This document shows, piece by piece, positions 23,267-61,125 of a stretch of DNA of 64,000 nucleotides; the first letter of the stretch is position 1; each line of letters opens with the position of its first letter. A program made the position numbers and the translations under genes. This DNA is from Candidatus Omnitrophota bacterium (GTDB lineage Bacteria; Omnitrophota; Gorgyraeia; Gygaellales; Profunditerraquicolaceae). Location of the stretch: positions 396,154 to 460,153 of the forward strand of contig JBAZTA010000002.1 of the NCBI GenBank assembly GCA_041662125.1, read 5' to 3'. A model generated the notes under the pieces. The model saw only the letters and a program-made list of their open reading frames with translations, did no database searches and was not told the origin of the DNA.

Positions 23267-24835
23267 ATGAAGCCAAAAACTATAGAGATCAACGAGCAAT
23301 TCAAGAAAGCCTTGGATGTAATAGAAAATACCTCAAAGAACGTTTTTGTTACCGGAAAAGCAGGAACCGGTAAATCAACGCTCTTGGAGTATTTTCGTTC
23401 CAAAACTAAAAAGAAAATCGCGGTATTGGCTCCTACCGGTGTAGCCGCCTTGAATGTGCGTGGAGAAACCATCCATTCTTTCTTTAGGTTTAAGCCAAAT
23501 ATCACGCTTGAGAAAATAAAAAAGATTAAAGGAAAGCGCGCGCGGATATTCAAGGAAATAGAGGCGATTGTCATTGATGAAATATCCATGGTGCGCGCTG
23601 ATCTGCTGGACTGTATAGAGAGATTCTTGCGTTTAAATGGAAAGAATTCAGGTATGCTTTTTGGCGGCATTCAGATGATCTTTATCGGGGACCTCTATCA
23701 ATTGCCTCCGGTAGTTACCTTACGGGAAAAGCATATATTCAGCCAGTATTATCAAAGCCCGTATTTTTTCTCTGCGCGTTTATTTGAAGAACTTGAAATG
23801 GAATTTATCGAGCTCGAGAAGATTTACCGTCAGAAGGATGAGGATTTCATAGGTTTGCTTAATGCTATCCGTAACAACAGTATTACGGATGAAATGCTGG
23901 AGATGCTCAATACGCGCGCTCAGCCATGTATGGATGATCGCCGTGAAGCGTTTACCTTGCACTTAACCACGACCAATCAAATGGCTGCCCGGATTAATAA
24001 CTACCACTTACAGCAGCTTAGGTCAAAAATATTCACCTATCAGGCAGAAATGTCTGGTGATTTCCAAGAACATACCTGTCCTGCTGATGCTCAATTACAG
24101 GTTGCGGTCGGGGCTCAGGTGATGTTATTGAATAATGATTCTGAGGATAGGTGGGTCAATGGTTCCATCGCGGAAGTTAAGGAAATAAAGCATGATAAGA
24201 AAAATGATACCGATGTGATTTATGTCCGGATGCAGGATGGTTCTCTGGAAGAAGTCTTGCCGCATAGCTGGGAATTATTCCATTATCGTTTTAACGAAGA
24301 CACCTTTTCCATAGAAACAGAATCAGCCGGCTCATTCACGCAATATCCGCTTAAGTTGGCGTGGGCAATTACTATTCATAAGAGCCAGGGTAAGACTTTT
24401 GAGAGGGTAGTTATCGATATGGGAAACGGCGCGTTTGCCAATGGTCAAACCTATGTTGCCTTAAGCAGGTGCACTTCTTTGGACGGCATTATACTTAAAC
24501 GTTCGATCAGAAAATCAGATATCCGCATGGATTGGAATATCGCGGAATTCCTGACGAAATACCAGTATGCGTTGTCCCAACGAGACTTGCCGCTTGAGGA
24601 CAAAGTGGATTTGATCGAACAGGCGATTAAGAACGATTGTCACCTTGCCATTGTATATCTTAAAGCCAGTGATGAGAAAACGCGCAGGGTAATTAAGCCT
24701 CTTGGTGTTGGCAAGAAAGAGTATCGGGGAGAAACCTTTATCGGCGTAGATGCGTATTGCCTCAAGCGTGGGGAAGAACGGGTTTTTCGGGTGGACTGGA
24801 TGCTGGAGATAAAGCTAGCCGATGTTCCCCACTAA
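23267..24835 (+). CDS. PIF1/RecD-like superfamily 1 helicase with uncharacterised C-terminal extension
   Basis: Walker A VFVTGKAGTGKST. PIF1-type motifs (IDEISMV, ITIHKSQGKTFERVVI). ~120-aa C-terminal region of unknown function. Confidence 0.7.
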   Translation: MKPKTIEINEQFKKALDVIENTSKNVFVTGKAGTGKSTLLEYFRSKTKKKIAVLAPTGVAALNVRGETIHSFFRFKPNITLEKIKKIKGKRARIFKEIEAIVIDEISMVRADLLDCIERFLRLNGKNSGMLFGGIQMIFIGDLYQLPPVVTLREKHIFSQYYQSPYFFSARLFEELEMEFIELEKIYRQKDEDFIGLLNAIRNNSITDEMLEMLNTRAQPCMDDRREAFTLHLTTTNQMAARINNYHLQQLRSKIFTYQAEMSGDFQEHTCPADAQLQVAVGAQVMLLNNDSEDRWVNGSIAEVKEIKHDKKNDTDVIYVRMQDGSLEEVLPHSWELFHYRFNEDTFSIETESAGSFTQYPLKLAWAITIHKSQGKTFERVVIDMGNGAFANGQTYVALSRCTSLDGIILKRSIRKSDIRMDWNIAEFLTKYQYALSQRDLPLEDKVDLIEQAIKNDCHLAIVYLKASDEKTRRVIKPLGVGKKEYRGETFIGVDAYCLKRGEERVFRVDWMLEIKLADVPH

Positions 24836-24883
24836 GACCGGGACTTGGCAAGTTGTTTTAAAATGTTGATAAGTCCCGGTCTT
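24834..24883. repeat. REP-like inverted repeat (immediately downstream of the PIF1-like helicase stop codon)
   Basis: AAGACCGGGACTT ... AAGTCCCGGTCTT, a 13-bp inverted pair around a 24-nt AT-rich spacer. Near-identical unit at 29809-29858. Confidence 0.7.
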
Positions 24884-24911
24884 AAAACAACAGGCTGCGG
24901 CACAAATTTTC

Positions 24912-46763: not shown

Positions 46764-47545
46764 TGACTGAATTCTTAATTAGTATCGGGCAGAGGGTATT
46801 GGCTTTTTTGTATTTTGTGGGAGGGATAAGTAAATTAGCATCCCAGACGTTTTACTTTTTATTTATTCCCCCTTTTAAACGGCAGCGGATCCTTCTGGAA
46901 GCAAAAAAGGCCGGCCTTGACAGCCTGCTGATCGTTTCCGTTATTTCGTTATTTATCGGTGTCATTCTGGCTTTGCAGACTGCGTATCTTATGCAGCGGC
47001 TGGGTTCGGAAATATATATTGCCAGTATTGTAGCGCTTTCCCTTGTCCGTGAAATGGGCCCGGTAATTACGTCGCTGGTTGTCGCCGGAAGGGTCGGTTC
47101 GGCGATCGCGGCTGAGATCGGCTCAATGCAGGTGACTGAACAGATCGACGCGCTGGAGACTTTGGCGGCGAATCCTGTTCAGTATTTGGTTGTTCCCCGT
47201 TTCCTGGCGTTAAGTTTGATGCTGCCGCTTTTGACTTTATTCGCCGATATTATCGGGATCATCGGCGGGTGGCTTATTTGTGTTTTTAAATTAGGGATAT
47301 CATCGAGTATGTACCTGCAGGTGACCTTTGACGCGTTATTGTTTAAAGATTTGTTTACCGGCACCTTTAAAACGGTATTTTTCGGCATGATCATTGCTTT
47401 TGTCAGTTGTTACCAGGGGTTTAATGTGGAAGGCGGTGCAGAAGGAGTTGGCAGGGCGACTAAGCAGGCGGTGGTTATATCGTTTATTCTGATCATTGCC
47501 TGTGATTGTTTGTTTACCGCGCTGTTTTATTTTATATTCCCTTAA
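46760..47545 (+). CDS. mlaE: MlaE-type ABC permease (phospholipid transport)
   Basis: MlaE/Ttg2B family multi-TM permease. Precedes the mlaF and mlaD homologs. Confidence 0.75.
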   Translation: MMTEFLISIGQRVLAFLYFVGGISKLASQTFYFLFIPPFKRQRILLEAKKAGLDSLLIVSVISLFIGVILALQTAYLMQRLGSEIYIASIVALSLVREMGPVITSLVVAGRVGSAIAAEIGSMQVTEQIDALETLAANPVQYLVVPRFLALSLMLPLLTLFADIIGIIGGWLICVFKLGISSSMYLQVTFDALLFKDLFTGTFKTVFFGMIIAFVSCYQGFNVEGGAEGVGRATKQAVVISFILIIACDCLFTALFYFIFP

Positions 47546-53367: not shown

Positions 53368-54774
53368 ATGCCTATCCGGATTTATAATTCCCTCTCCCGA
53401 AAAAAAGAGGAGTTTGTTGCTCAGTCTGCCCCCCTGATCACGATGTATACCTGCGGAATAACGGTCTATGACCAATGCCATATCGGCCATGCCCGAAGCC
53501 TTTCTATTTTTGAAGTGATCAGGCGGTATCTGGAGTACCGGGGCTATACCGTGCGTTTTGTGCGCAATATTACCGATATCGACGACAAAATAATCAACCG
53601 GGCCAATGAGCTCCACCTGGATTGGGAGATGCTGGTTAAACAGTACATCGAAGCGTATTATAAAGACCTTGATGTCTTAGGGGTGCGTCGAGGAATAGAG
53701 GATTCCGGTGAGGAGCCGCGGGCGACAAGAAATATCCCTGAAATGATCAGTTTTATCAAAGATTTGCTGGATAAAGCTTACGCCTATGTGACAGAGAGCG
53801 GCGTGTATTTTAGCGTGCGTAAATTTAAGGAGTACGGTAAATTATCCGGCCAGAGCATTGATGAGATGTTGACCGGCGTGCGTAAAGAATCCGACGAGGC
53901 TAAGCTTGACCCGCTCGATTTTGCTTTATGGAAAAGGTCTAAGCCGGGAGAGCCGTTTTGGCAGAGCCCCTGGGGAGAGGGCAGGCCCGGCTGGCATATA
54001 GAGTGTTCTGTGATGAGCCAGAAATACCTGAATACCTCGACGCTTGATATTCACGCGGGGGGCAGGGATTTGATCTTTCCGCATCATGAGAACGAATTGG
54101 CGCAGAGTCAGGCTCAGAGCGGCAAATGTTTCGCGAAATACTGGATACACCACGGCCTCTTGACGATCAACGGCCAGAAGATGTCTAAATCCCTGGGGAA
54201 TTTTATTACCATTGATGATTTTATGCGGAAATTCCAGAATGCCGATCTGCTGAAATTATTGTTTTTAGCGGCGCACTATTCTCATCCGGTGGATTATACC
54301 GATGAAAAGATCCAGGAAACCAGGCAGGCATGGGGAAGGATCATGCATTTGATGGAAAGGCTCCAGAGAAAAGTAACACCGTCAGGCGCGCCTGCCGAGC
54401 TGCATGCCGAGATCAATACGGTCAAAGCTCGGTTTATAGAAGCTATGGATGATGATTTTAACACGCCCAAGGCGTTGGCAGCGCTTTTTGAATTAGTAAA
54501 TGTAACGAATAAGAAAATAGATGATATCAGTTTTATTACCGAAGCTTCTGTTACGTTAAAAGAATTGTTTGGTGTTTTGGGTATTTCGCTGAGCTCCACG
54601 AAAGAAGGGCCTTTAGCTGACGATCAGGCTATTAATACAAAGATCGCTGAAAGAAATAATGCCCGTAAACTTAAGGATTTTGCTTTAGCGGATAAGTTGC
54701 GCAAAGAGCTGGATGCTGCGGGTGTCATTATAGAAGATTCTAAAGAAGGCACGACCTGGCGCAGAAAATTGTAA
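53368..54774 (+). CDS. cysS: Cysteinyl-tRNA synthetase
   Basis: HIGHARS and KMSKS class I motifs. Length 468 aa. Confidence 0.9.
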   Translation: MPIRIYNSLSRKKEEFVAQSAPLITMYTCGITVYDQCHIGHARSLSIFEVIRRYLEYRGYTVRFVRNITDIDDKIINRANELHLDWEMLVKQYIEAYYKDLDVLGVRRGIEDSGEEPRATRNIPEMISFIKDLLDKAYAYVTESGVYFSVRKFKEYGKLSGQSIDEMLTGVRKESDEAKLDPLDFALWKRSKPGEPFWQSPWGEGRPGWHIECSVMSQKYLNTSTLDIHAGGRDLIFPHHENELAQSQAQSGKCFAKYWIHHGLLTINGQKMSKSLGNFITIDDFMRKFQNADLLKLLFLAAHYSHPVDYTDEKIQETRQAWGRIMHLMERLQRKVTPSGAPAELHAEINTVKARFIEAMDDDFNTPKALAALFELVNVTNKKIDDISFITEASVTLKELFGVLGISLSSTKEGPLADDQAINTKIAERNNARKLKDFALADKLRKELDAAGVIIEDSKEGTTWRRKL

Positions 54775-54791
54775 GATTGGCAAGTAATATT

Positions 54792-55035
54792 ATAAATAAA
54801 TCTGCCGGTTTTCAAGCGAATGTCGATTTTAGCCAAAGCAGCTTGAGTGTTTTCGGGCATCCCCGTGGAGCGAAGCGACAACACGGGGACGGCGATGCTG
54901 TTTGAGTCATATTTGCTAGAGCAAATAGGACGAGTTCAGCAGCCGCCGAAAACACGAAAGAACTTTGGCGGCACCTTAGTTTAGAATATTCTGGCAAAAT
55001 CGACCTTGAGCGAGAAAACCGGCAGATTTATTTAT
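54792..55035. repeat. 244-bp element bounded by perfect 22-bp terminal inverted repeats (MITE-like or long-hairpin ncRNA)
   Basis: 5' ATAAATAAATCTGCCGGTTTTC and 3' GAAAACCGGCAGATTTATTTAT are exact reverse complements. The interior is an extended imperfect inverted repeat (GTCGATTTTAGCCAAAG vs CTGGCAAAATCGAC; GTGTTTTCGG on both arms). Central hairpins CCCCGTG/CACGGGG and TATTTGC/GCAAATA. Confidence 0.6.
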
Positions 55036-55096
55036 AGTAGCGCTAAATTAAAATTCACGTGTGACATTTCGCAGCAAGAATATCTGTAGGGAGACT

Positions 55097-55708
55097 ATGA
55101 AAAGCAAATTTATCACATTTGAAGGGTCCGAGGGGTGCGGCAAAAGCACGCAGTCAAAACTTTTGGCTGGGTTTTTAAAACGTAAAGGCTATGATGTCGT
55201 TTATATCCGAGAACCCGGGGGCACTAAGATAAGCGAGAAGATACGTCAGATCTTGTTGGACGCCAAGAACGATGCTATGGCTTCTTCGAGTGAAATGCTT
55301 TTATATATGGCGGCACGCGCGCAGATCATAGCTGAGGTGATCAAACCCGCGCTCCTGCAAGGGAAAATTGTTATCGGTGACCGCTTTCTCGATTCGACTC
55401 TGGCATACCAGGGTTTTGGTTTGGGTATGGATATTGATTTTATTAAAACAGTAGGAAATTTCGTTACCGCAGGCATTAAACCCGATTTGACGATATTCCT
55501 TGATCTGCCGGTTCATAAGGGGCTCAAGCACCGCGAACTCACCAAAGACCGTATTGAGCAAAGGTCTTTTAACTATCATCTGCGGGTCAGAAATGGGTAT
55601 TTAAAACTTGCCAGTCAAGAGCCGCAGAGGATCAAGATCGTAAAATTAGAAAAAGAGATATCACTGACACAGGAAAAAATAAGGGCTTTAGTTTCCGCGC
55701 TTATTTGA
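55097..55708 (+). CDS. tmk: Thymidylate kinase
   Basis: P-loop EGSEGCGKST. ATG at 55097 with GGGAG RBS, preferred over the track start 55061. Confidence 0.85.
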   Translation: MKSKFITFEGSEGCGKSTQSKLLAGFLKRKGYDVVYIREPGGTKISEKIRQILLDAKNDAMASSSEMLLYMAARAQIIAEVIKPALLQGKIVIGDRFLDSTLAYQGFGLGMDIDFIKTVGNFVTAGIKPDLTIFLDLPVHKGLKHRELTKDRIEQRSFNYHLRVRNGYLKLASQEPQRIKIVKLEKEISLTQEKIRALVSALI

Positions 55709-61010: not shown

Positions 61011-61040
61011 GCCATAAACGCCAGAGGCATGGCTTATTCA
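60982..61040 (+). repeat. Two-hairpin element family C, copy 2 (overlapping the mtnA 3' end)
   Basis: Same element. Stem reads TGAATAAGCCAT/ATGGCTTATTCA. Both differences from copy 1 are compensatory, so pairing is preserved. The loop AAACGCCAGAGGC is conserved. Confidence 0.65.
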
Positions 61041-61048
61041 ATTTTAGA

Positions 61049-61098
61049 AAGACCGGGTCTTAAAGAGGTGTTCTTTATTATAAATAAGACCCGGTCTT
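61049..61098. repeat. REP-like palindromic element pair (between mtnA and thiL)
   Basis: AAGACCGGGTCTT (61049-61061) and AAGACCCGGTCTT (61086-61098) around an AT-rich spacer. Directly follows the family C element. Confidence 0.7.
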
Positions 61099-61125
61099 AA
61101 AAGATAAGAATAAGGCGAAGGCAAA

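Follow-up and report, generated by a model that had tools for sequence, protein, structure and literature searches.

The spacer between cysS and tmk holds a long palindrome

What kind of element lies between cysS and tmk in this Candidatus Omnitrophota genome, and is it a piece of mobile DNA or the gene of an RNA? A first-pass annotation had described a 244-bp element with perfect 22-bp inverted arms in this spacer and had read it as either a MITE (miniature inverted-repeat transposable element) or a 6S-like noncoding RNA. Analysis of the 64-kb window (i.e., the whole stretch of DNA under study, positions 1 to 64,000) bore out the description. The arms ATAAATAAATCTGCCGGTTTTC (54792-54813) and GAAAACCGGCAGATTTATTTAT (55014-55035) are exact complements over 22 nt, and their pairing reaches 26 nt when one mismatch is allowed. 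Folding of the + strand as RNA gave -120 kcal/mol, compared with -67 ± 4.4 kcal/mol for shuffled sequences (z = -12); the - strand folded at -111 kcal/mol, and DNA parameters yielded -74.3 and -70.7 kcal/mol for the + and - strands, respectively. The 22-mer of the arms occurs only at these two sites in the window (100 shuffles produced 0 matches), and the arm pair is the longest inverted repeat that the window contains. The sequence of the element is identical in an independent assembly (Logan SRR18595301).

The interior of the element is an imperfect palindrome with two central hairpins, as had also been described, and in the predicted fold these hairpins form a three-way junction. From the outside inwards, a long closing stem is followed by a series of short helices and then by the junction at the center. 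The claim that the element has no open reading frame stood in part: no frame is conserved across the family to which the element belongs (see below), but short mechanical ORFs of 42-86 aa do overlap the 244 bp.

The element lies within a co-directional run of genes (ispD, ispF, an acetyltransferase gene, cysS, tmk, holB, a PSP1-domain gene and metG). The Tmk protein of the window is 100% identical to a protein encoded on a 543-kb contig of a Candidatus Omnitrophota MAG, and an exact look-up of the window CysS returned no record. All real genes in the part of the window examined are on the + strand, and GC skew is strong and uniform, being positive in every 2-kb bin from 1 to 64000 (0.09-0.25). 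Two small palindromes elsewhere in the window (24833-24884 and 61033-61114) share the core TAAGACCGGGNCTTA and may represent another short repeat or terminator type.

Table 1 Coordinates of the element, its helices and the features around it. Positions are those of the window unless a locus is named.
Feature	Position	Strand	Pairing partner or remark
cysS, upstream gene	53368-54774	+	Pfam; F1 core begins 20 nt past the stop codon
Closing stem, 5' arm, 26 nt	54788-54813	+	Covaries across the family; perfect 22 nt is 54792-54813
F1 core in the window, 238 nt	54795-55032	+	Limits of conservation and pairing in the 73-copy alignment (AATGAAYCTG...CAGRTTCATT)
Tandem G.A/A.G, motif A	54818-54819	+	Paired with 55008-55009; (near-)invariant in 73 copies
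Second helix, 5' side, GTCGATTTT	54822-54830	+	Pairs with 54996-55004 (AAAATCGAC)
5' strands of two helices, GCCAAAG and GTGTTTTCGG	54832-54856	+	Pair with 54963-54969 and 54946-54955, respectively
Tandem G.A between those two helices	54845-54846		Opposite 54956-54957
Three-way junction, hairpin A, TCCCCGTG...CACGGGGA	54860-54889	+	Stem covaries; tip length varies among copies
Junction arm B	54890-54945	+	CGGC/GCCG, then TGCTG/CAGCA, tandem G.A and terminal hairpin
Arm B tandem G.A	54904-54905		Opposite 54932-54933
Arm B terminal hairpin	54906-54931		Conserved TAGAG loop
Block of highest conservation, GTTCAGCAGCCGCCGAAAA	54934-54952	+	Pattern that retrieved the family
Variable side hairpin, 3' strand	54970-54995	+	Missing or different in many copies
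Closing stem, 3' arm	55014-55039	+	Pairs with 54788-54813
ATTAAAA, single copy of a 7-bp direct repeat	55047-55053	+	Brackets F2 in L004 and L005; no F2 in the window
tmk, downstream gene	55097-55708	+	Pfam
F2 copies	L004:2265-2470, L005:2264-2470, L003:2782-2968, L175:11835-11979		
F2, further loci	L107, L061, L077, L079, L141, L144, L148, L109, L065, L075, L133, L113		

The element belongs to a family of intergenic repeats in Omnitrophota

A single metagenome scan with the 19-nt invariant core pattern GTTCNGCAGCCGCCGAAAA returned at least 120 loci, and a profile built from the first three copies identified at least 84 full-length homologues among them. Homologues of this family, which we named F1, were detected with nhmmer profiles rather than a covariance model, and the invariance of the core block is built in by the search pattern. 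Copies are ~215-285 nt long and typically ~235 nt. In the window, the profile matched full length at 54789-55039 and revealed no second copy in the 64 kb. Four contigs carry two copies each (loci L064, L169 and L059, and Ga0315283_10000080), and such second copies in the fetched loci place the density of F1 very roughly at one copy per 60-170 kb. Some of the pairs within a contig are 72-74% identical.

Every copy found is intergenic, in either orientation. Many begin or finish within ~10 nt of a stop codon, some overlap the stop, and the ends of F1 (TAAATGAA...) provide stop codons in two of the three frames. Of 73 copies, 49 have the F1 sense strand on the C-rich strand, antisense to the genes, and the other 24 have it on the G-rich strand; the flanks of copies elsewhere have a GC skew equal in magnitude to that of the window. 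The 133 nearest genes fall into 163 Pfam families with housekeeping functions throughout the top of the list, where CysS, amidohydrolase, DHH/DHHA1, RodA, MalQ, RuvB and QueH are commonest.

Flanking proteins belong to Omnitrophota at the few loci whose taxonomy was examined. The neighbor of one highly divergent copy shares 96% identity with a protein from an Omnitrophota MAG, and its named homologues are all from Omnitrophota. Plasmid, phage and viral collections contained nothing similar to F1, and the core pattern had 0 matches in viral contigs. The 18-mer TTTTAGCCAAAGCAGCTT had 28 matches in viral contigs, which we rejected as all lie in unrelated coding sequence (the reverse strand encodes KAALAK).

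Rfam 15 yielded no match at E ≤ 10 for the element and none for 15 other F1 copies, and at gathering thresholds no family was found in the whole window; the spacer of L003 was likewise blank. The sole real Rfam match was an unrelated tRNA gene at L101:306-379, ~175 nt from the F1 copy at L101:554-772. A literature search covering noncoding RNAs, RNA motifs, MITEs and palindromic repeats of Omnitrophota found no description of F1. F1 is a previously uncatalogued family of folded intergenic repeats in Omnitrophota genomes.

F1 stems covary and one strand carries conserved non-Watson-Crick motifs

We aligned 73 distinct F1 copies with MAFFT on the basis of sequence and counted a consensus of 54 pairs. 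Pairing was retained in 94.7% of cells versus 81.2% in shuffled alignments, and 41 of the 54 consensus pairs had changed on both sides. Two-sided changes were found in 12/12 pairs of the closing stem (helix 1) and in 7/7 pairs of the stem of hairpin A (helix 8). The covariation score was 0.365; shuffles gave 0.128 (0 of 500 were as high) and slid controls 0.05-0.08. The arms of F1 vary and covary, and the core is more conserved than the arms.

The strand that matches the + strand of the window folded better in 73/73 copies, which are homologous and do not amount to 73 independent trials (mean of -118.4 vs. -104.2 kcal/mol), and it holds 203 G-U pairs vs. 134 on its complement. This strand asymmetry arises largely because of four sites, all nearly invariant, at which 5'-GA-3' faces 5'-GA-3'; on the complement, TC is placed opposite TC. 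At motif A (alignment columns 41-42 with 379-380), for example, the counts are G73/A73 and A69/G68. In the window copy, three of these four tandem G.A motifs are intact. The fourth lies in the second helix, where most copies have GGAG and form a tandem G.A with CGAC; the window copy has GTCG, which pairs with CGAC in Watson-Crick fashion. Because the G.A motifs are kept while the stems around them covary, we infer that selection acts on the single-stranded form of one strand. RNA is preferred over single-stranded DNA as the selected form because the asymmetry is larger with RNA energies.

Many copies contain a stop-free antisense frame of at least 70 codons (e.g., 54812-54997 in the window), and the peptides are similar (...FSAAAEL.AFALANAPQTASPS...). 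We nevertheless rejected a small protein encoded by F1: its register is not maintained across copies, the lengths of indels are not divisible by three, and in an anchored frame 48 of 70 copies have internal stops. The stop-free frame is probably a by-product of base composition. As for expression signals, we found no sigma-70-like -10 motif at a fixed distance upstream of F1, no U-tract after the closing stem across F1 copies and no convincing promoter inside the element.

F1 is present, absent or inverted at the same site in relatives

Across 17 Omnitrophota loci, the cysS-tmk arrangement ranges from overlapping genes to a spacer of 521 nt. Three of these loci encode a Tmk that is 86-87% identical to that of the window, and they differ in what lies between the genes. 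L002 has a 90-nt spacer without F1. L004 has an empty site, in which GATTGGCAA directly adjoins CGCTAAATT with no duplicated bases, followed by a copy of a second hairpin repeat, F2. L005 carries F1 at the exact site of the window, again followed by F2; its flanks are collinear with those of the window, whereas the interior of F1 is inverted (identity is 92% for the reverse complement and 62% when the same strands are compared). A more distant locus, L006 (Tmk 70% identical), has a diverged F1 copy in the window orientation whose stems are visibly compensated.

When the window is compared with L005, identity at four-fold degenerate sites amounts to 71% for cysS and 54% for tmk, against 92% for the F1 interior; F1 is far more conserved than the synonymous sites of its flanking genes. 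This difference points either to strong purifying selection in both orientations or to recent acquisition by each of the two lineages, from similar sources and at the same spot. Other orthologous sites (after malQ, amidohydrolase, rodA and other genes, as well as after cysS) likewise hold F1 in both orientations or another hairpin family. Downstream of cysS, distant genomes have two sense and four antisense copies of F1, and the site after malQ is occupied by F1 in L066 (5857-6106) and L174 (2955-3198) and by F2 in L175. Gene-end spacers may need or attract some structured repeat, whichever the family. F1 copies are more like other copies of the same lineage than like those that occupy the equivalent site in different lineages, which suggests turnover or gene conversion.

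F2 is unrelated to F1, ~190 nt long and dispersed in Omnitrophota, with 12 further loci (Table 1). Its outer stem in L004 is a perfect 19 bp, and in L003 one of its strands folds better. Where F2 adjoins F1 (L005, L061, L065, L075, L077, L079, L109 and L144), the arrangement is head-to-head, and 2-112 nt separate the two 5' ends. The lack of F2 at ATTAAAA in the window looks like a deletion or insertion bounded by microhomology. Besides F2, we noted a motif GCGGGTGRC...CAGGACCCGC.

A shorter, nested hairpin motif, GCGGGTGRCTTGG...CCAAGACAGGACCCGC(TAA), begins directly at stop codons and, in other Omnitrophota (L009-L017, L024 and L025; self-nested in L017), fills the spacer between cysS and tmk. 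It also flanks many F1 copies (e.g., in L071, L103, L123, L147 and L076), often 15-35 nt from the F1 5' end and on the opposite strand, and a half-site is present at position 47265 of the window.

Mobile repeat, RNA gene or other

Part of the MITE claim was upheld: the family has many dispersed copies at unrelated loci, its presence varies between close relatives, and its inverted arms (22-30 bp), length below 500 bp and AT-rich ends and flanks are those of such elements. In the classical sense, a MITE is an internally deleted insertion sequence whose terminal repeats are recognized in trans by a DDE transposase that duplicates the target, and here the claim was weakened. When all boundary offsets were tried for the 73 copies (k = 2-6), direct repeats were no commoner between the two flanks of one copy than between flanks of different copies, although old copies can lose target duplications (PMC10969869). 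The commonest families of the 133 neighbor genes include no transposase, integrase or reverse transcriptase, and no F1 copy is split by an insert or gene. In addition, the arms are variable and covary whereas the core is the most conserved part, and strand-specific non-Watson-Crick motifs would be meaningless for a double-stranded transposase substrate. We therefore consider a classical MITE unlikely; so weakened, this reading would still predict a counterpart Omnitrophota insertion sequence with ends matching AATGAAYCTGGCGG. In broad usage, the term covers elements under 500 bp with terminal repeats of 4-30 bp and direct repeats that erode as copies grow old, and it takes in ERIC (PMC10969869); only in this loose sense does F1 fit the label. 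The inverted interior of L005 relative to the window, within collinear flanks, and the occurrence of both orientations at several orthologous sites, would also be expected of an inverton, in which the arms are recombination sites and flipping of the interior alters expression of tmk or cysS. However, no recombinase gene lies within about 3 kb, the interior offers no convincing promoter and is instead a near-palindromic fold conserved at scores of unrelated loci, and the difference in orientation is between species rather than shown within a population, so we regard an inverton as very improbable. The 6S-like RNA proposed in the first-pass annotation fared worst. The element resembles 6S RNA and other known long-hairpin RNAs (SRP RNA etc.) in its length and mostly double-stranded shape, but no Rfam model for 6S, SRP or other long-hairpin RNAs matched this copy or the 15 others. 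F1 has small internal loops and a three-way junction at its center in place of a large, open-promoter-like bubble, it occurs in many copies per genome or contig (at least 84 at unrelated loci, where 6S RNA would be expected to have one or two genes per genome), and the closest relatives lack it at the cysS-tmk site. We give this reading almost no credence; within the reach of sequence and structure models, it is refuted.

The explanation that we favor, at about an even chance of being right, is that F1 is a noncoding, non-autonomous, dispersed structured intergenic repeat of the ERIC/Correia/REPIN kind. Such a repeat would be kept and spread through the single-stranded form of one strand (RNA, or possibly single-stranded DNA), which folds into a conserved rod with a closing stem of 25-30 bp, a three-way junction and helices interrupted by tandem G.A motifs at four sites. 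New or replacement copies would enter preferred gene-end spacers by recombination or by means of a trans-acting enzyme encoded elsewhere, and F1, which has no gene of its own, is acquired and lost, becomes inverted and occurs in combination with other hairpin repeats. Upon operon read-through (cysS-tmk here), the long duplex of at least 26 bp could serve as a determinant of processing or stability as an RNase III-type substrate, in the manner of Correia elements. Against this explanation, mobility is deduced from distribution and presence/absence, with no enzyme or target duplication found; the recurrence of orthologous spacers in distant lineages would equally fit ancient vertical inheritance of a functional gene; and conservation, non-Watson-Crick motifs and strand asymmetry are expected of a functional RNA but needless for a selfish repeat or simple hairpin. 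Moreover, roughly two thirds of copies are antisense to their neighbors, which argues against a role that needs co-transcription, and the copy number seems modest, below that of typical REP or Correia families. The main alternative, possible though doubtful, is that F1 is a multi-copy family of noncoding RNA genes whose sense strand is a stable RNA of ~200-240 nt that works in trans, e.g., as a scaffold to which proteins bind via its G.A motifs. This RNA would be made from its own promoter or cut out of longer transcripts at the closing stem, with the copies as paralogous genes homogenized by gene conversion rather than mobile DNA. Strong covariation, the greater stability of the same strand in every copy together with its excess of G-U pairs, the four tandem G.A motifs and conserved loops, the conservation of the interior across the inversion relative to four-fold sites, and the recurrence of orthologous sites in distant Omnitrophota all favor RNA genes. 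So does an orientation independent of the neighbors, like that of tRNA genes, and copies on the same contig can be old paralogs. However, the genes would lack a promoter-like motif at a fixed distance and a U-tract after the stem, and copies that abut or overlap stop codons, or lie 2-30 nt head-to-head from another repeat, leave little room for signals. The element is also dispensable at cysS-tmk in the closest relatives, and an unrelated hairpin family can replace it at the same sites. Together, the conservation data fit RNA genes as well as or better than a dispersed repeat, while packing, dispensability, replacement and the lack of signals fit RNA genes less well. In a more novel reading, F1 might be a new, Omnitrophota-specific, multi-copy class of RNA, a ~235-nt rod that combines a three-way junction with four tandem, kink-turn-like G.A motifs, is under strong purifying selection and travels with head-to-head F2; it would be a component of a trans-acting ribonucleoprotein or an RNA-based mobile element excised at its closing stem. 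We put this forward tentatively.

F1 in a compact genome and among known repeats

Bacteria of the Omnitrophota are uncultured, for the most part ultra-small, and have compact genomes (PMC10066038). That such genomes keep scores of ~235-nt repeats, conserved above the silent sites of their essential neighbors, is unexpected for junk DNA. F1 is absent from Rfam 15, and we found no paper that describes it; the 73-copy alignment with its covariation is a ready basis for a new RNA or repeat model, and the family can serve as a marker for Omnitrophota contigs. Mobilization of ERIC-like repeats is still unexplained, and a single orthologous site with filled, empty and inverted alleles provides a clean case for studying how such repeats spread and why they stay conserved. 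If the sense strand is indeed a discrete RNA, F1 would constitute a new class of bacterial noncoding RNA.

Among known systems, 6S RNA shares with F1 a mostly double-stranded shape and a length of ~200 nt, whereas F1 matches no 6S model, has no central bubble, is multi-copy and is dispensable at cysS-tmk. Correia repeat-enclosed elements of Neisseria duplicate a TA target, and F1 has no target duplication. Like F1, they have an inverted repeat of ~26 bp around a conserved core and are present or absent between close genomes; unlike F1, they are ~100-150 bp, very abundant, contain IHF sites and create promoters at their ends, none of which we found for F1. The transcribed Correia hairpin is a substrate of RNase III (PMC2649163, PMC10969869). 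ERIC/IRU sequences of Enterobacteriaceae and Vibrionaceae, whose hairpins in transcripts affect mRNA fate and which have no known transposase, are also conserved across genera in tens of copies upward, with numbers that vary by lineage, much as in F1 (PMC10969869). Both are imperfect palindromes in intergenic or gene-3' positions and in either orientation; however, ERIC is a simple hairpin of 127 bp from another phylum and of unrelated sequence, while F1 measures ~235 nt, contains a three-way junction as well as four tandem G.A motifs, and has no detectable target duplication. QMITE2 of Coxiella burnetii has terminal repeats of 23-29 bp, a core of 113-145 bp, a mostly 3' untranslated location and a transcript that folds at about -113 kcal/mol (PMC10969869). 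It thus resembles F1 in the length of the terminal repeats, location and fold energy, but it is accompanied by direct repeats of 7-9 bp, which F1 lacks, whereas F1 shows phylum-wide covariation. REPINs and BIMEs are doublets of REP sequences, miniature mobile DNA mobilized by RAYT transposases (PMC3116915, PMC3733652). A REP unit measures 20-40 nt, bears a GTAG or CGTC tag and has an associated RAYT gene, whereas F1 is six times larger, its ends are AATG...CATT, and no RAYT or Y1 transposase is present among the neighbor genes of the sampled loci. Like F1, REPINs and BIMEs form hairpins, are strand-specific and leave no target duplication, and their mosaics of alternating orientation resemble the head-to-head arrangement of F1 and F2 in at least 8 loci.
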